32,000 nt of DNA, taken from contig JAUIFI010000001.1 of NCBI GenBank assembly GCA_030429505.1, positions 180,001-212,000 on the forward strand, read 5' to 3'. A model generated the notes under the pieces. That model was not told where the DNA came from. It saw nothing but the letters and a program-made list of their open reading frames with translations, and ran no database searches. The position numbers and the translations under genes were made by a program. This DNA is from Candidatus Saccharimonadota bacterium. Lineage in GTDB: Bacteria > Patescibacteriota > Gracilibacteria > UBA4473. Shown here in pieces: positions 2,806-16,599 of this stretch. Each line of letters starts with the position of its first letter. Position 1 is the stretch's first letter.

Positions 2806-2890
2806 TGGTGCCGAGAGAGGGAATCGAACCCTCACGCCTTGCGGCACACGATTTTGAGTCGTGCGCGTCTACCAGTTCCGCCATCTCGGC
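2806..2890 (-). tRNA. tRNA-Leu (anticodon CAA)
   Basis: The reverse complement is GCCGAGATGGCGGAACTGGTAGACGCGCACGACTCAAAATCGTGTGCCGCAAGGCGTGAGGGTTCGATTCCCTCTCTCGGCACCA. It has a 7-bp acceptor stem, anticodon loop CUCAAAA, a long variable arm, a GGTTCGATTCC T-arm and encoded CCA. Confidence 0.93.
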
Positions 2891-7282: not shown

Positions 7283-8692
7283 ATGAAACAGTTCAAAAAA
7301 CACGCTTTCTTCGTAGGAATTCTCTTGCTAACCGTTGGGCTCGGATTGTCTGCTTGTGTAGGACCTAGTGAATCAGAAGACCATTTTGAACGTCCAGAAG
7401 AAGTCGAAACAGTAACCTTGAAAGGAGAAATATTTCCATTTTCGGTGTCTGTCTCCACGAGTGCTACTCATCGTCTGGAAAGTGACGGAAGACTTGGAGC
7501 TTACCTTGCTTCAGACATTGTAGATTTAAAAGAATTTGAAGGACAAAGTGTAGAAATCGAAGGTGTCTGGCATAAAGAGAAAATGCGTGAAATATTCCGA
7601 GTTGAAGCTGTCCGGCTACAAAATAGTGAAGAAGAAGAGGAAGAAGAGACCGAAAACAGATTTCTCTCTAAAAAATTCACCTTTGTTTATCCTGCCACGT
7701 GGGAATATTCTATGTCTCCGGGAGGAGTGGCACACTTTACCGATAAGAACGATGCCGCCAGACGAGTGTTTCTTATGTTTTCCGTCGAAGATATGACCAG
7801 AGCTGACACAAAAAAAGATCCCAATATCCTTATAGGTGAATTGACTGGCAATAAGAAAATTACTACCGATCAGCTTGATCGAGAACGAGAAGAAATCACT
7901 CTATTTTCCAATCTTTTTGAGACCAAATATAAATTTATATTCACCAGTCAATTTGAAGAATTTGAAAAAAAGAAAGCCTTCTTTAAACTTCTTAACACAT
8001 TTACCGAAGGAGAAGAAAAAGTTGCAGAAGTGATCGAAGAAGAAAAAAGAGTATTAGCCGAAAAAGAAGCTGAAAAAATCAGAAAAGAAAAAGAAAAAGA
8101 GCGTCTTGAAGCTTTGGCTCAAAAAGCCCAAGAGGAAGAGAATGAAGACGATATATCATTCCTTGAAAAAATTCTCAAAAAATCCGAGACAGATGAATCA
8201 GAGGAAGAAGCATTGAATGAAGAAGTCAAAGAATCTTCAGAAGACAAGGAAGCCGCTGACGTGACCAAACTTGCTCAAGAAGCTCAGACAGAAACCGAAG
8301 AAGATCAAAAAGCAGAAACATCACCAGCCGTAACCATCCTGCCAGGAGCAGAGTATACAAACTTGATCAATGAAAAAGCATTTGATTATACCAATGAACT
8401 TCATAAATTTTCTATGCAAGTGCCTTGGGGGTTTTGGTTTTGGAATTTCGGTTCTAGTGACACGGCACTCGTTCGAATAGGCTTTTCCAACCAAGAATTA
8501 TCTACTCCCGCTGGTGCTAAATACTGGTTACAAGTCATTGAATCCGAAGACATTCCAGACAGCTTTACTGAAAACATTGAAGAAGGGCAGGTTGTCATTA
8601 AAGTGCCACGTACGGAAAACTCTTATTTCCAGCTATCAGGTCCTGTCGGGTTTCGAGATGCGATGCTCAGTATCGCATCAACTATTAAATAA
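7283..8692 (+). CDS. acidic lipoprotein, hypothetical
   Basis: Signal peptide with lipobox LSAC (MKQFKKHAFFVGILLLTVGLGLSAC). A long central E/K-rich low-complexity segment lies between two globular ends. Confidence 0.8.
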   Translation: MKQFKKHAFFVGILLLTVGLGLSACVGPSESEDHFERPEEVETVTLKGEIFPFSVSVSTSATHRLESDGRLGAYLASDIVDLKEFEGQSVEIEGVWHKEKMREIFRVEAVRLQNSEEEEEEETENRFLSKKFTFVYPATWEYSMSPGGVAHFTDKNDAARRVFLMFSVEDMTRADTKKDPNILIGELTGNKKITTDQLDREREEITLFSNLFETKYKFIFTSQFEEFEKKKAFFKLLNTFTEGEEKVAEVIEEEKRVLAEKEAEKIRKEKEKERLEALAQKAQEEENEDDISFLEKILKKSETDESEEEALNEEVKESSEDKEAADVTKLAQEAQTETEEDQKAETSPAVTILPGAEYTNLINEKAFDYTNELHKFSMQVPWGFWFWNFGSSDTALVRIGFSNQELSTPAGAKYWLQVIESEDIPDSFTENIEEGQVVIKVPRTENSYFQLSGPVGFRDAMLSIASTIK

Positions 8693-8778: not shown

Positions 8779-11700
8779 ATGAAAAAGTACGATCACCAAG
8801 AAATTGAGAAAAAATGGCAGAACTATTGGCTTAAAAACAAAACTTTTAAGACTACAGAAAATTCGAACAAAGAAAAATACTACGTTCTCGATATGTTTCC
8901 TTATCCCTCTGGGGCAGGACTCCATGTCGGACATCCTTTGGGGCAAACTGCCACAGACATAATAGCCCGTAAACGTCGTCATCAAGGTTACGAAGTTCTC
9001 CATCCTATGGGCTGGGATGCTTTTGGACTCCCTGCTGAAAACTATGCAATTAAAACCGGTATTCATCCTGCGATTACTACCAAAGAAAACAGCGACACAT
9101 TCCGCCGACAAATTCAATCACTCGGCTTTAGTTATGATTGGGATCGAGAAATAAATACCACAGATCCTCAGTACTACCGTTGGACACAATGGATTTTTTT
9201 ACAACTCTACAAAAAAGGTCTCGCCTACGAAAAATCTATGCCTATGTCATGGTGTCCCAAATGCAAGATTGTAGCCGCAAACGAAGAAGTCGAGCAAGGG
9301 ACGCATGAACGTTGCGGTACACCCGTGGAAAGAAAGCACCTCAAACAATGGATGTTGCGGATTACCGAATACGCAGAAAGATTATTAAATGATCTGGATT
9401 CTCCCAATATCTACATTATCCACGGCTGGGGTTCTGATTCTCAGTCCAACTGGTTTGAACGAGCGCGTCAATTTCTCGTGAGCAAAAAAGTACGCGTTTG
9501 CGTCCCGGATTTTCCCCATACCGATAACCCTGTTTACAAAGAATGGAAAACTCATTTTGAATCTCAGTTCATCCAGCTTTGGTCTCAAGACATCCTGATC
9601 GGACACAGCTTAGGGGGAGGTTTTATGCTCAAATATCTGTCTGAAAATGACATACAAATCGACAAATTAATCTTGGTTGCTCCCACCATCAAAGATTATG
9701 ATGTTCTAGAACTCAAAGACTTCTACACCAAAACTTTTGACTACGACAAGATCAAACAATCTGCTCAAAAGATTGCGATCTTTGCCTCAGACAATGATCA
9801 GTACATCCCACTCAAAGACTTCCAATTTTTGGCTCAACAATTAGACGCAGAACTCATATTATTGCCACAACGAGATCATCTGATGGATCCGAATTTTCCA
9901 GAATTATTCGAATATCTGGGAGATATCCAGCGTTCGATTCTCAACTGGCCAGACAAGATCAAAGCCATGCAACGCAACTGGATCGGAAAAAGTGAAGGAT
10001 TGCTTTTTACAGCTCCGGTCAAAGATACCAATATTACTATTCAAACCTTTTCTGCTCATTTTGAAGCATTTTGTTCAGATAATTTTGTTGTTATCGCTCC
10101 AGATCACCCTTTCCTTGAAACTTTACTTGAAGGAATAGATAACAAACAGGAAATTCTTGATTTTTGTAAAGAATTGATTCGAAAACGTATGGAGCGAGGG
10201 TTTGAAGAAGAAAAAGAACCGGAAGGCATCTTTACTGGCAGATATATTATTGACCCAGTCGGAAATGGTGATTTACCTATCTGGATAGCCAGCTTCGCAC
10301 TTGCGGATTATGGAACGGGGATTGTCAAATGTTCCGCTCATGACGAACGGGATTTTGCCTTTGCCAAAAAATATAATATTCCTCTCAAACCCGTCCTTTT
10401 CCCGAAAGACCCGGAAAAAGCAGAAAAAGTTAAAAATCTCGAAGTTTGCTGTACAGATATGGTTGATGGGATCTTAACAGAACCCACCGAATTTACAGGC
10501 AAAAGATCTGGCGATGTCAGACAAGAGATTATAGAGTACATAGAAAAAAAAGGATTTGCCAAGCGACAAACCACTTACAAACTTCGCGACTGGATTTTTA
10601 CTCGCCAGCGTTACTGGGGAGAGCCCATTCCTATCGTCTTTGATGAAAAAGGGCAGGACTATCCACTTGATGACTCAGAACTTCCCTTGCAATTACCAGA
10701 AATTGCAAAGTATGAACCATCTGAAACTGGAGAATCACCTCTAGCAAGTATTGATTCGTGGGTCAATATCCAAGGATACATAACCAAACAGGGGACTGTG
10801 AAAACCATTCAATCAGGAGATAAAGCTCCAAAAGACACGACCATTCAAAAGTTTAAACGAGAAACTTCCACTATGCCCAATTGGGCGGGAAGTTCGTGGT
10901 ATTGGCTACGATTTATGGATCCTTGTAATGAACAAGAATTTTGTTCAAAAGAGAAAGAAAAATACTGGGGACCAGTAGACCTTTACGTTGGTGGAGCTGA
11001 ACATGCAGTCCTTCACCTGCTCTACGCTCGATTCTGGCACAAAGTTTTGTATGATTTGGGCTTAGTCTCCACCAAAGAACCTTTCAAAAAACTCCTCAAC
11101 CAAGGTCTAATCCTCGCCGAAGATGGACATAAAATGTCAAAATCACTCGGCAATGTTATCAATCCCGATGATATTGTGAAAAAATATGGAGCAGACACTC
11201 TTCGCGTCTACGAGATGTTTATGGGACCTTTTGAGCAATCAAAAGCTTGGAATATGAATGCCGTGGAAGGAGCGCGAAAATTCTTGGATAGAGTATGGCG
11301 AGTATCACAAAAAAATAATAAAAATAGAAAAAAAGAATCTATTTCATCCCTTCTTCATCAAACGATAAAGGTTGTCACAGAACATATCGAAGAATTTCGA
11401 TTCAATACCGCCATTTCCCAGCTTATGGTCTTAACCAATGAACTGACTGCACAAGAAGAGATCTCACAAGAGACTCTTGAAATTTTTGTCATCCTTCTTT
11501 CTCCCTTTGCCCCTCATCTAGCTGAAGAAATCTGGAGAGAAATATTGGGACATACAGAGACTGTCGCCTACGAACCATGGCCAACTTGGAATCCTGAATA
11601 TCTGATTGAAAATGAAGTCACTTATGCCGTTCAGATTAACGGAAAAGTTCGGGCTGACTTTACCACTCCAAAAGATACGGCAAAAGAAGAAGTTGTGGCT

Positions 11701-11802
11701 AAAGCGAAGACTCTAGAAAATGTTTCAAAATACTTAGATCAGGGAACAATTATCAAAGAAATATTTGTCCCGGAAAAAATAGTAGGATTTGTGGTGAAAT
11801 GA
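8779..11802 (+). CDS. leuS: leucyl-tRNA synthetase with an extra internal domain
   Basis: HIGH motif (HVGHPLG), KMSKS, WCPKC zinc module, CP1 editing region, YKLRDWIFTRQRYWGEPIP and a C-terminal tRNA-binding domain. At 1007 aa it is about 180 aa longer than usual. Confidence 0.96.
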   Translation: MKKYDHQEIEKKWQNYWLKNKTFKTTENSNKEKYYVLDMFPYPSGAGLHVGHPLGQTATDIIARKRRHQGYEVLHPMGWDAFGLPAENYAIKTGIHPAITTKENSDTFRRQIQSLGFSYDWDREINTTDPQYYRWTQWIFLQLYKKGLAYEKSMPMSWCPKCKIVAANEEVEQGTHERCGTPVERKHLKQWMLRITEYAERLLNDLDSPNIYIIHGWGSDSQSNWFERARQFLVSKKVRVCVPDFPHTDNPVYKEWKTHFESQFIQLWSQDILIGHSLGGGFMLKYLSENDIQIDKLILVAPTIKDYDVLELKDFYTKTFDYDKIKQSAQKIAIFASDNDQYIPLKDFQFLAQQLDAELILLPQRDHLMDPNFPELFEYLGDIQRSILNWPDKIKAMQRNWIGKSEGLLFTAPVKDTNITIQTFSAHFEAFCSDNFVVIAPDHPFLETLLEGIDNKQEILDFCKELIRKRMERGFEEEKEPEGIFTGRYIIDPVGNGDLPIWIASFALADYGTGIVKCSAHDERDFAFAKKYNIPLKPVLFPKDPEKAEKVKNLEVCCTDMVDGILTEPTEFTGKRSGDVRQEIIEYIEKKGFAKRQTTYKLRDWIFTRQRYWGEPIPIVFDEKGQDYPLDDSELPLQLPEIAKYEPSETGESPLASIDSWVNIQGYITKQGTVKTIQSGDKAPKDTTIQKFKRETSTMPNWAGSSWYWLRFMDPCNEQEFCSKEKEKYWGPVDLYVGGAEHAVLHLLYARFWHKVLYDLGLVSTKEPFKKLLNQGLILAEDGHKMSKSLGNVINPDDIVKKYGADTLRVYEMFMGPFEQSKAWNMNAVEGARKFLDRVWRVSQKNNKNRKKESISSLLHQTIKVVTEHIEEFRFNTAISQLMVLTNELTAQEEISQETLEIFVILLSPFAPHLAEEIWREILGHTETVAYEPWPTWNPEYLIENEVTYAVQINGKVRADFTTPKDTAKEEVVAKAKTLENVSKYLDQGTIIKEIFVPEKIVGFVVK
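9400..9945 (+). other. alpha/beta serine-hydrolase domain (YdeN/RBBP9-like) inserted within LeuRS
   Basis: Residues ~208-389: IYIIHGWG..., nucleophile elbow GHSLGG, SDNDQYIP, RDH and FPELFEYL. It is flanked by LeuRS segments LLNDLD and WPDKIKAMQRNWIG, which are contiguous in E. coli LeuRS. Confidence 0.75.
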
Positions 11803-11949: not shown

Positions 11950-12411
11950 TTATAAAGCATTTGACAATCCCCATCTCCTATCTGAAAACTCCTCCGTCCC
12001 AAACAATACATCCATTTCTTGTTTCATTAGCACAATATCTTTATTGTTAAGAGGCTGATATTCTTCTCTGTGTCCAGGAATAATCGGATCACCGAACTTT
12101 TGATATCGAGCATCTTTAGCTCGTCCATAAAGATGAATATGTAAATGTGGTTTCCAGTTCCCGTTATCCTGATAATTTATACGCTGTAACTCAATACCCT
12201 GTTTCCCAAGAGCAAATTTCATAGCTCTCCCCGTGATGATCGTTAATCGCATTAACTCAATAGCCTCTTGAGAAGATAACTGTGTTCTATCTTCGAAATC
12301 TTTTTTGGGTGTTATTTTTACATGCCCACCATCAATCCTATCTACTTCAGGTTTTTGATGAGCCTCAACAACGAAATGCTTTGTCTCATAAATAAGCACC
12401 ATAGAGTTCAA
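11950..12411 (-). CDS. HIT (histidine triad) family hydrolase
   Basis: Histidine-triad motif HLHIHLYGR lies near the C-terminal third. Length is 153 aa. Confidence 0.8.
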   Translation of the reverse strand: MNSMVLIYETKHFVVEAHQKPEVDRIDGGHVKITPKKDFEDRTQLSSQEAIELMRLTIITGRAMKFALGKQGIELQRINYQDNGNWKPHLHIHLYGRAKDARYQKFGDPIIPGHREEYQPLNNKDIVLMKQEMDVLFGTEEFSDRRWGLSNAL

Positions 12412-14627: not shown

Positions 14628-15233
14628 TCAAAACTCCCGTCTCTCTGTAATTGCCCTGCCAATAGTTCCAATATCCAGATAGTCTAATTCTCCTCCAGAT
14701 GGAATCCCGCGAGCAATACGAGATATTTTCCCAGAAAAAACAGGCTTTATTTCTCGGGCAATATAAAGTGCGGTGGCATCAGCTTCGGTAGATCCTGACA
14801 TAGCTAAAACCACTTCTTGAAGATCTGAAAGTTCGCGTAAACGATTTGTCAGTTCACTGATCTTCAAATGTTCTGGACCTACTTTGTTAAGCGGAGAAAT
14901 CACACCATGCAGGATATGATAACGTCCTTTAAATTCATGAGTGCGTTCTAGAGCAATGACATCCAAAGGCGTCTCCACCACGCATAAAACAGTATCATCT
15001 CTCGTAGGGTCAGCACACAGAGCACAAATTTCTCCTTCACAAAAATGATAGCAAGACTGACACTGACGAATGTCGCGCTTCAATCTTCCTACACTTTTAG
15101 AAATTTTTTGATCCAACCCCGACTCGTTTTTAAGCAAAGAAAAAATCAGCCTTTCAGCACTTCTCGAACCAATACCCGGCAAACTTGCCAAGTTTTCAAT
15201 CGCTTCAAGTATTGGTTGGGGTAAAGCTTTCAT
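14628..15233 (-). CDS. recR: recombination protein RecR
   Basis: N-terminal HhH (LPGIGSRSAERL), Cys4 zinc finger (CQSCYHFCEGEICALC) and Toprim segment (VLCVVETPLDVIALE). Confidence 0.93.
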   Translation of the reverse strand: MKALPQPILEAIENLASLPGIGSRSAERLIFSLLKNESGLDQKISKSVGRLKRDIRQCQSCYHFCEGEICALCADPTRDDTVLCVVETPLDVIALERTHEFKGRYHILHGVISPLNKVGPEHLKISELTNRLRELSDLQEVVLAMSGSTEADATALYIAREIKPVFSGKISRIARGIPSGGELDYLDIGTIGRAITERREF

Positions 15234-15275: not shown

Positions 15276-16559
15276 TCAAAGCTCTGATCTCAGTAAATCT
15301 TTTAAATATTCAATGATCTTATCAAGATCTACTTCTTCTTTTTTTCCGGTTTTCATATTGCGCACCAAAATTTTCTTTTTACGAACTTCCAAATCTCCCA
15401 AAAGTAAAGAAAAAGGTGCTTTGAAACGCTCAGCACGTTTGAGTTGTTCTTCCATGGAAGTTTTTCCCAAATTTCCAACCGCATGAAAACCATGCTGGCG
15501 TAGTTGATATAAAAGAGGAAGTGCTTTCTTTTTTGCCAAAGGACCCGTTGCAGCTACAAAAACTTCTAAAGGTTCGTTTAAATCAGGAAATTGTTTACAC
15601 TTCTGCATTAATTCCGCCATTCTCTTCACCCCTCCTGCAAATCCGGCCCCTCCCAAATCTTTTTCTCCTCCCATGGTAGAAATGAGTCCATCATATCTCC
15701 CTCCAGCCATAAGTTTATTGAGTGTGCCTTTTTCAAAAAATTCAAAAACCGTATGCTGATAATATTCCATCGGTCGAAATAAATAAGGGTCTACTGTGTA
15801 AGCAATCCCAAGAGAATCAAGGTACTCAATCATTTCTTCAAAAAATTTCTGAGATTCAGGAGAAAGAAATTCTGTGATCTTCGGTGCCATTTCCACCAGA
15901 ATAGCTTCATCTTCTGTAAGTGGTGTGAGCAAAGATAGATATTTCTTTTGTTCTATTTTTTCCAATGAAGTAGGGGATAGACTTCGTTCTTTGCCACTAT
16001 AAAAATTCTCTAAAGCTTCCAAATATTTCCTTCTATCTTCAAAAGACCCTACTGTGTTTACTTTCAGCTCACAACGTTTTCGTATTCCTAAATCCATGAA
16101 AATCTGATCAGCTAAAGCAATAAGTTCTGCATCAATCGCCGGATCAGATTCTCCTAAAACTTCTACTCCCACTTGCCAAAAACTCCGTTGAGTATTTGAT
16201 TTTATTCGTTCAAAACGAAAGCAATCTCCAACATAATACACAGACAAAGGAAGTGGCATTTTTGTATGCATCTCATGTTGGATAAATGATCGAACAATGC
16301 CGGTTGTGATTTCTGGTCTAAGTGAATACTGCCGCCCTCTACGATCTTCAAACCCATACATTTCTTTTTGAAGTATTTCTGATGTTGTTCCGAGACTTCT
16401 TTCAAAGCAATCTTGTTGCTCAAATAAAGGAGTGGACATCTGTTTGAATCCACACTGTTCAAAGCGTTTTTGAATCATATGAATCATAAAGCGCACTCGG
16501 CTATATTCATCAGGCAGATAATCATGAGTGCCCATAGGGGCCTTGAAGTATTTAGGCAT
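15276..16559 (-). CDS. hisS: histidyl-tRNA synthetase
   Basis: Class II motifs: LRPEITTG, FRFER, AGGRYDGL and GFAGG. A C-terminal anticodon-binding domain is present. The start is placed at MPKYFKAPMGTHDYLP (16559) rather than the upstream extension at 16592. Confidence 0.9.
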   Translation of the reverse strand: MPKYFKAPMGTHDYLPDEYSRVRFMIHMIQKRFEQCGFKQMSTPLFEQQDCFERSLGTTSEILQKEMYGFEDRRGRQYSLRPEITTGIVRSFIQHEMHTKMPLPLSVYYVGDCFRFERIKSNTQRSFWQVGVEVLGESDPAIDAELIALADQIFMDLGIRKRCELKVNTVGSFEDRRKYLEALENFYSGKERSLSPTSLEKIEQKKYLSLLTPLTEDEAILVEMAPKITEFLSPESQKFFEEMIEYLDSLGIAYTVDPYLFRPMEYYQHTVFEFFEKGTLNKLMAGGRYDGLISTMGGEKDLGGAGFAGGVKRMAELMQKCKQFPDLNEPLEVFVAATGPLAKKKALPLLYQLRQHGFHAVGNLGKTSMEEQLKRAERFKAPFSLLLGDLEVRKKKILVRNMKTGKKEEVDLDKIIEYLKDLLRSEL

Positions 16560-16599
16560 TACACAAAATGAATTATAGATGAACTGATACAAGGTATAG

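Follow-up and report, generated by a model that had tools for sequence, protein, structure and literature searches.

A complete YdeN/RBBP9-type serine hydrolase domain nested before the CP1 editing domain of a leucyl-tRNA synthetase from the candidate phyla radiation

Few enzymes are as conserved as the aminoacyl-tRNA synthetases, whose accessory domains have been catalogued in detail. The bacterial leucyl-tRNA synthetase (LeuRS-B), known from the structures of the Escherichia coli (4aq7, 5omw) and Thermus thermophilus (1h3n, 2bte) enzymes, has its modules in the order HIGH motif, ZN domain, CP1 editing domain, KMSKS loop, anticodon-binding domain and C-terminal domain. The ZN domain of the E. 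coli enzyme comprises residues 149-193, with its final strand at 184-193 (PMC13454842). YdeN of Bacillus subtilis (1uxo) and human RBBP9 (2qs9, 7oex, 9fcr) are free-standing proteins of the Ser_hydrolase family (PF06821), which have in common a lid-less alpha/beta-hydrolase fold of about 180 aa and the motif order HG, G-H-S-x-G, Asp, His. In this study, we analyzed a window of 32,000 nucleotides from a Candidatus Saccharimonadota bacterium (Gracilibacteria in the GTDB lineage; contig JAUIFI010000001.1, positions 180,001 to 212,000 of the forward strand). The leuS gene in this window encodes a LeuRS with the modules of LeuRS-B in the same order, and a domain with the fold and motif order of YdeN and RBBP9 is nested in a loop of this class I synthetase. 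The protein differs from LeuRS-B by this additional catalytic-type domain of 180 aa, which stands in place of Gly209 (Thermus numbering), and by a conserved FSAHFEAF variant that is exchanged for the TTRPDT motif of CP1.

The leuS open reading frame (ORF) extends from 8779 to 11802 on the forward strand and encodes 1007 aa. An earlier note on this DNA, made by a model from the sequence alone, had described the frame as uninterrupted, which was confirmed by the ORF list, and had proposed that an intact YdeN/RBBP9-type domain lies within it. TIGR00396 (leuS_bact, NCBIfam) matched the protein with 937.1 bits against a cut-off of 548.4, in two stretches flanking the insert, and Pfam identified tRNA-synt_1, Ser_hydrolase, the PF13603 editing domain and Anticodon_1. 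The PF06821 match covered residues 211-368, between the first tRNA-synt_1 stretch and CP1, and scored 62.0 bits with the whole protein and 66.4 bits with the excised insert (cut-off 22). Against solved structures, the excised insert as a single sequence matched B. subtilis YdeN with E=1.2e-18 and human RBBP9 with E=1e-7, and a profile of 42 related domains, both LeuRS-embedded and free-standing, gave E=4e-43 and E=4e-32, respectively. The two E-values to YdeN exclude chance. The sequence identity to YdeN and RBBP9 is only 20-27%. All matches of the insert in Pfam, NCBIfam and PDB were to alpha/beta-hydrolase families. The full-length LeuRS was modeled by AlphaFold2 with a mean predicted local distance difference test score (pLDDT) of 90.9 and a predicted template modeling score (pTM) of 0.84, and the insert within this model had a pLDDT of 92-97. 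The LeuRS body matched the E. coli, Thermus and Neisseria enzymes (5omw, 2bte, 7nu8) with a target template modeling score (TM) of about 0.8 in Foldseek. The model of the isolated insert (pLDDT 96.2, pTM 0.92) was superposed on YdeN (1uxo) with a TM of 0.90/0.88 and a root-mean-square deviation of 1.8 Å, and matched Phe-bound RBBP9 (7oex) with a TM of 0.87; in the next tier of alpha/beta hydrolases the target TM was 0.73 or lower. These results agree with the YdeN/RBBP9-type identity given in the earlier note.

The hydrolase domain occupies residues 208-387 (9400..9939, forward strand), between helices 195-204 and 392-402, as defined by PF06821, the structure matches and the alignment. Query residues 156-207 aligned with T. 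thermophilus LeuRS 156-208 (…YAERLLKDLE) and residues 388-446 with 210-268 (LNWPEKVKAMQRAWIGRSEG…), and the 180 aa between them stand in place of the single Thermus residue Gly209. The insertion is thus clean and in frame before CP1, as had been claimed, with the LeuRS alignment resuming one residue past the break. Without the insert the protein would be 827 aa long, which is an ordinary LeuRS length as previously estimated, since insert-less relatives have 803-851 aa. In the model, strand 184-193 and helix 195-204 are followed by the hydrolase (first strand 210-214, last helix 374-385), helix 392-402 and a strand into CP1. The hydrolase thus sits at the tip of a connector of two helices, which links ZN and CP1. 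Because the linkers have only about 4-6 residues, it is held there as a rigid extra lobe.

The catalytic residues of the YdeN/RBBP9 family are all present in the insert. The HG motif of the oxyanion hole is formed by His215-Gly216 (9421..9426, forward strand, as are the residues below); in the 42 aligned domains Gly216 was invariant and His215 was kept in at least 90%, and the HG motif was kept in all 14 hydrolase copies compared, including those at other LeuRS sites. The nucleophile elbow G-H-S-L-G (275-279, 9601..9615) belongs to the motif GHSLGG (275-280) and contains Ser277 at nt 9607-9609. Its H-S-L-G was invariant in the alignment and in all hydrolase-bearing orthologues, as were Asp340 (9796..9798), which aligned with Asp138 of RBBP9, and the triad base His367 (9877..9879). 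The HG motif, GHSLGG, Ser277 and His367 were all located where the earlier note had placed them. For the acid, found in the motif SDNDQ (337-341), the note had given Asp338 or Asp340; we assigned it to Asp340 because this residue is invariant, whereas Asp338 varies among orthologues. In addition, the lid loop carries the motif DCG[IV]xEIxNFF in most orthologues and DYDVLELKDFY in the query, a motif confined to the LeuRS-embedded clade and the free-standing proteins most closely related to it.

The distribution of the insert was examined in related genomes. Thirty-six hydrolase-bearing LeuRS of uncultured bacteria were collected from independent assemblies (NCBI, ENA, JGI, Logan), in Peribacteria, Gracilibacteria and related lineages, a taxonomy that rests on named relatives. 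The whole-protein search returned the query and about 30 LeuRS, 45-64% identical, with the same combination of Pfam domains and identical junctions, among them the protein of 'bacterium DOLZORAL124_38_8', and a genome scan added metagenome-assembled genomes (MAGs) of Candidatus Peribacteria and Candidatus Gracilibacteria. Sharing by related genomes, which the earlier note had listed as a check, was thereby established. A word-indexed search with the insert alone returned free-standing hydrolases only and missed the embedded copies, even the query protein itself. The ratio of nonsynonymous to synonymous substitution rates (dN/dS, omega; Nei-Gojobori method, two close pairs) was 0.117 and 0.132 for the insert and 0.071 and 0.086 for the remainder of LeuRS. 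Purifying selection acts on the insert with nearly the strength seen for LeuRS. Its GC content followed that of the host gene in five genomes over a range of 0.32-0.49, and a search for target-site duplications and terminal repeats around nt 9400 and 9939 gave only short chance repeats. In a neighbor-joining tree, the copies at LeuRS-profile position 208 formed one clade, which among the proteins compared occurred mainly in the closest LeuRS relatives of the query, Peribacteria and Gracilibacteria MAGs included, and the pairwise identities of these copies correlated with those of the LeuRS core (r ~0.5).

Folding, conservation, selection, native GC content and the single clade together point to a single old insertion, with vertical inheritance and retained function. 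We are therefore nearly certain that a complete YdeN/RBBP9-family hydrolase is nested in this LeuRS as an old and stably inherited insertion. The view of the earlier note that the domain is a working enzyme rather than a decayed remnant is likewise supported by a triad (Ser277, Asp340, His367) that is invariant in all orthologues, an omega of about 0.12 and a model pLDDT of 96. In one of the Candidatus Gracilibacteria MAGs (L002), the LeuRS frame, on the forward strand from about nt 857, was open for 1466 codons; this LeuRS probably carries several further inserts besides the hydrolase.

The host protein is a complete bacterial LeuRS, with HIGH, KMSKS, CP1 and an anticodon-binding domain. The HIGH motif of the synthetic site reads HVGH (residues 49-52, 8923..8934, forward strand, as are all features of this protein). 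The equivalent of the ZN domain (residues ~149-193, 9223..9357) was located by the model strands 149-159 and 184-193 and by the Thermus 156-208 alignment, and lies directly upstream of the insert-bearing connector. It is followed by the CP1 editing domain (PF13603, 139.9 bits; residues 399-588, 9973..10542), the KMSKS loop (785-789, 11131..11145) and the anticodon-binding domain (PF08264, 85.7 bits; residues 855-971, 11341..11691). Within CP1, the 'T-rich' position is taken by the variant TFSAHFEAF (423-431, 10045..10071). The GTG...AHDERD segment (512-525, 10312..10353) retains GTG and HDERD, the editing Asp motif, and comparison with orthologues showed that the conserved editing-site aspartates are kept.

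The earlier note had regarded the CP1 motif as degenerate and had linked the hydrolase to it. Among the 120 best LeuRS matches, however, [FY]S[AT]H[FY]E[AS] with GTGIVKCSAHDERDF was found in 66 and canonical TTRPDT with GTGIMAVPAHDERD in 52. Because the FSAHFEAF motif is common to so many of the nearest LeuRS, it represents a conserved alternative CP1 type and not decay. The hydrolase was present in 21 LeuRS with canonical TTRPDT and absent from 31, and it was present in 6 LeuRS with the FSAHFEA variant and absent from 60 (odds ratio 6.8, p 1e-4, ignoring phylogeny). TTRPDT was thus more frequent with the insert, and the insert, if anything, goes with an intact canonical CP1. The link drawn in the earlier note did not hold, and compensation for a degenerate CP1 was rejected as an explanation, since the variant is conserved and most insert-bearing LeuRS have the canonical motif. 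CP1 identities correlated poorly with those of every other LeuRS region (r ~0.25), suggesting an exchange of CP1 types between lineages.

We also scanned the 120 aligned LeuRS matches with local hidden Markov models (HMMs) and expressed positions in the LeuRS profile. LeuRS proved to be a mosaic in these lineages, in which a few loops have repeatedly taken in whole domains, namely those at ~208, 236-246, 363-382, 450-476, 506 and 651-658. Ser_hydrolase was found at ~208 (about 31 proteins), 370, 450 and 651-655; NUDIX at ~208-216 (3 proteins), 363-382 and 506; Ham1 at ~209 (4 proteins); and a Y1_Tnp-like domain (IS200-type) at 246. The hydrolase lies before CP1 in P0165, P0173 and P0178, inside CP1 in P0241, in the C-terminal catalytic half in P0299, and between KMSKS and the anticodon-binding domain in P0196, as in P0057. 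Tandem copies before or within the catalytic core were observed in P0171 and P0180. In all copies compared, the HG motif was kept, and so was the triad of Ser, Asp (or Glu) and His. Both copies of each tandem kept Ser and His; copy 2 of P0180 has Glu at the position of the triad Asp, and copy 2 of P0171 has Q-S for H-S at the elbow. In the tree, the copy at site 651 branched outside the site-208 clade. The different sites and this branching argue that the hydrolase family was recruited into LeuRS several times. As judged from these sequences, independent insertions have occurred at no fewer than four LeuRS sites (~208, 370, 450 and 651-655), in addition to the tandem copies.

The family itself was surveyed by an index-free HMMER scan of 1.84 billion representatives, which gave 2,305 members. 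These were mostly free-standing proteins of 170-200 aa, and the best match was a free-standing protein of 178 aa with 44% identity. Among the best 150 of the 2,305 members, all nine hosts longer than 700 aa were LeuRS, and the hydrolase positions given above for individual proteins, except that of P0057, are from these hosts.

Other guests were observed in the same host. CPR (candidate phyla radiation) LeuRS that bear NUDIX, Ham1 or Y1_Tnp-like domains (P0099, P0124, P0090, P0157, P0054, P0155) resemble the query in host and loops and differ in the guest. LeuRS relatives with Ham1/ITPase-like domains were P0090, P0106, P0133, P0157 and P0241, and the single named Ham1-bearing LeuRS is annotated as Paceibacterota. 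NUDIX was found in P0099, P0124, P0127, P0144, P0148, P0158, P0159, P0054, P0171 and P0299, and the Y1_Tnp-like domain in P0054 and P0155. Certain CPR LeuRS combine two or three different guest domains.

An in-frame module of about 125 aa was also detected, at LeuRS-profile positions 33, 235-237, 453-476 and 658 and nested inside the hydrolase. It occurred 13 times in nine LeuRS (P0049, P0051, P0052, P0059, P0067, P0069, P0076, P0113 and P0178), at five sites and with at most two copies per protein. Its consensus is …VKKK…F[DN]G..L..HF..K…ER..R…TVIKAL…IGYF…VKTYY…LTK.Y, with invariant H, K, E, R, G, T and Y. No credible relative of the module was found in Pfam with E up to 10, in a PDB profile search or in a word-indexed profile search. 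In L041 (P0069), the DNA of the module had 33-35% GC within a gene of 49% GC. The LeuRS of L042 (P0078), 97% identical to that of L041, contained only a deleted remnant of the module. Copies of the module were bracketed by S[TA]ENS peptide repeats. The module looks like a mobile, non-splicing in-frame element.

The neighborhood of leuS was also inspected. A gene for a HIT-domain protein of 153 aa (PF01230, 36 bits, HLHIHLY) lies at 11950-12411 on the reverse strand, immediately downstream of leuS and convergent to it. HIT enzymes hydrolyze acyl- and aminoacyl-adenylates, and the adjacency to leuS is suggestive. As a functional partner of LeuRS, however, the HIT gene was rejected, as it is not conserved beside leuS in L001 or L002. 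Directly upstream of leuS, at 7283-8692 on the forward strand, a protein of 469 aa with a lipoprotein-like N-terminus and long Glu/Lys-rich low-complexity stretches is encoded, which had no match in Pfam. The genes hisS (15276-16592, reverse strand) and recR (14628-15233, reverse strand) are no more than 5 kb away from leuS, and 6 kb upstream of it there is a tRNA-Leu(CAA) gene (2806-2890, reverse strand). The UGA-recoding code 25 occurs in some Gracilibacteria; the long ORFs obtained under table 11 indicate that the standard genetic code, not code 25, is used here.

[quoted passage not shown] The earlier note had suggested mischarged tRNA-Leu or a non-cognate aminoacyl-adenylate as a substrate, and this family chemistry is compatible with either. 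The inserted hydrolase may be an autonomous hydrolytic site whose benefit depends on physical coupling to LeuRS. Such a dependence is inferred from four or more independent entries of the family into LeuRS, always with an intact triad, and from LeuRS being the only large host among the best 150 matches. By analogy with RBBP9, Ser277 would attack an alpha-aminoacyl carbonyl, in an ester, anhydride or amide, with release of the free amino acid. The likeliest substrates would be non-cognate products leaving LeuRS, such as released aminoacyl-adenylate (aa-AMP) or mis-acylated tRNA-Leu, and this clean-up activity would supplement CP1 rather than replace it. We prefer this aminoacyl clean-up mechanism, but only tentatively, as a possibility drawn from the analogy with RBBP9. 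The whole statement, in which the structural and evolutionary part is combined with this mechanism, has in our estimate slightly less than an even chance of being correct. Glu311 is conserved in the site-208 clade and in its nearest free-standing relatives. In the pairwise alignment, it corresponds to Glu108, the alpha-amine anchor that RBBP9 has in addition to a hydrophobic cage, and in the profile alignment it falls on Arg109. This correspondence is suggestive but not decisive.

Several observations weigh against aminoacyl clean-up. Glu311 is not conserved at the other LeuRS sites, and its alignment with Glu108 may be off by one residue. No editing gap is obvious, since CP1 is canonical in most LeuRS that bear the insert. 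Since the hydrolase is found at structurally different LeuRS sites, a precise placement on the CCA path appears less needed. NUDIX or Ham1 occupies the same loop elsewhere in CPR, which fits a permissive loop no less than a specific function. Free-standing relatives have 44-47% identity, and one that was checked had no translation-related neighbors. The count in which only LeuRS served as large host is based on the best 150 matches, which are biased toward relatives of the query.

These points bring forward the view that the hydrolase is a passenger in a permissive loop with a housekeeping job unrelated to aminoacylation, for example that of a general esterase or aminopeptidase. It would persist through the tolerance of the loop and through guaranteed expression from an essential, steadily expressed gene in a tiny genome. 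The same few loops accept NUDIX, Ham1, the Y1_Tnp-like domain and the ~125-aa module; the vast majority of the family is free-standing (about 2,300 representatives, for the most part of 170-200 aa); the one free-standing relative examined is surrounded by unrelated genes; and the hydrolase is uncorrelated with loss of the canonical CP1. However, LeuRS as the only large host among the best 150 matches, at least four independent entries and an intact triad exceed what one lucky fusion would give, and the other fusion partners seen were small (a methyltransferase and another hydrolase). We consider a passenger role somewhat unlikely, though it deserves serious attention. An aminopeptidase could also have a task next to LeuRS, if an RBBP9-like activity cleaved Leu or another hydrophobic residue from the N-terminus of imported peptides near the amino-acid site of LeuRS. 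RBBP9, itself an aminopeptidase, traps Leu/Ile, Met, Phe, Tyr and Trp (PMC8866121), and such a supply would aid an amino-acid auxotroph, in line with the very limited biosynthetic capacity of CPR bacteria. This idea leaves NUDIX and Ham1 in the same loop unexplained, and RBBP9 prefers aromatic residues rather than Leu; we regard it as improbable. In a resistance module, the tethered serine hydrolase, NUDIX and Ham1 domains would destroy LeuRS inhibitors that mimic aminoacyl-adenylates directly at their target. LeuRS is the target of natural leucyl-adenylate mimics such as TM84, the toxic moiety of agrocin 84 (PMC5059758; structure 3zgz). All three types of inserted enzyme cleave ester, anhydride or nucleotide bonds, and the HIT-domain gene adjoins leuS in the window. 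This case is nevertheless purely circumstantial: the HIT neighbor is not conserved in relatives, and no inhibitor is known in these habitats. A resistance function is, in our judgment, very improbable.

As a further alternative, the hydrolase could itself be an in-frame mobile element, selfish or in decay, or an insertion of the intein type that is tolerated and unused. LeuRS relatives do carry a mobile, compositionally foreign in-frame module, a recently deleted remnant of it was found in a close relative, and a Y1-transposase-like domain is present in LeuRS relatives. The hydrolase, in contrast, shows an omega of 0.12-0.13, an invariant triad, native composition and monophyletic position-208 copies without flanking repeats, and Pfam detected no Hint or intein family in it. 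An intein was rejected, as the C-terminal junction …SILN|WPDK lacks the splice signature of His-Asn followed by Cys/Ser/Thr and no Hint domain is present. A selfish origin is accordingly given hardly any weight. An assembly chimera or a hidden frameshift that fused a hydrolase gene to leuS could be suspected only insofar as the source is apparently a metagenome-derived genome. The frame is continuous, the LeuRS alignment resumes exactly one residue past the break, and the same junctions occur in at least 30 independently assembled LeuRS of 45-64% identity from four data sources. The identical junctions in independent assemblies rule out a chimera for practical purposes.

In the literature searched, including the 2024 AARS Online catalogue, we found no account of a LeuRS into which an alpha/beta serine hydrolase, NUDIX or Ham1 domain is inserted, in accord with the earlier note, to which no described synthetase of this architecture was known. 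The hydrolase-LeuRS fusion is widespread in one part of the CPR, and in public databases it is labeled only leucine--tRNA ligase; these fusions thus constitute an annotation blind spot. A catalytically intact hydrolase that is selected within LeuRS would be a new accessory activity, the more so with several independent entries. CPR LeuRS also emerges as a protein in which whole enzyme domains, and one or more mobile in-frame elements, have landed repeatedly, which bears on how multifunctional proteins are built in organisms with tiny genomes.

The aminoacyl-tRNA synthetase proofreading modules, such as CP1 of LeuRS, IleRS and ValRS, INS/YbaK of ProRS, AlaX/ThrRS N2 and DTD, are likewise domains of hydrolytic type joined to a synthetase, and by analogy they may share an aminoacyl-ester substrate with the insert. 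The insert is not homologous to the CP1, INS/YbaK, AlaX or DTD folds, since its Pfam, NCBIfam and PDB matches are to alpha/beta hydrolases only. To our knowledge, none of the editing folds described so far is an alpha/beta hydrolase with a Ser-Asp-His triad. No editing domain of this fold is listed in AARS Online. If the substrate is an aminoacyl ester or adenylate, the domain would represent a new proofreading fold. We think it unlikely, but worth stating, that the nested domain forms a new, non-homologous class of synthetase proofreading site and that several clean-up hydrolases have been installed on CPR LeuRS. On that reading, an alpha/beta-fold serine deacylase would clear non-cognate aminoacyl-tRNA-Leu or aminoacyl-adenylates, and CPR LeuRS would be a scaffold repeatedly fitted with serine hydrolase, NUDIX and Ham1. 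A further comparison is offered by NCBIfam NF040702, 'isoleucine--tRNA ligase, N-acetyltransferase domain-containing', an exception-type model for a class Ia synthetase that carries an unrelated enzyme domain. This IleRS with its GNAT domain differs from the present protein in host, guest and chemistry, and the LeuRS-hydrolase form has no dedicated model. Synthetases with extra enzyme domains are a known kind, and the LeuRS with a nested serine hydrolase is apparently an undescribed form among them.

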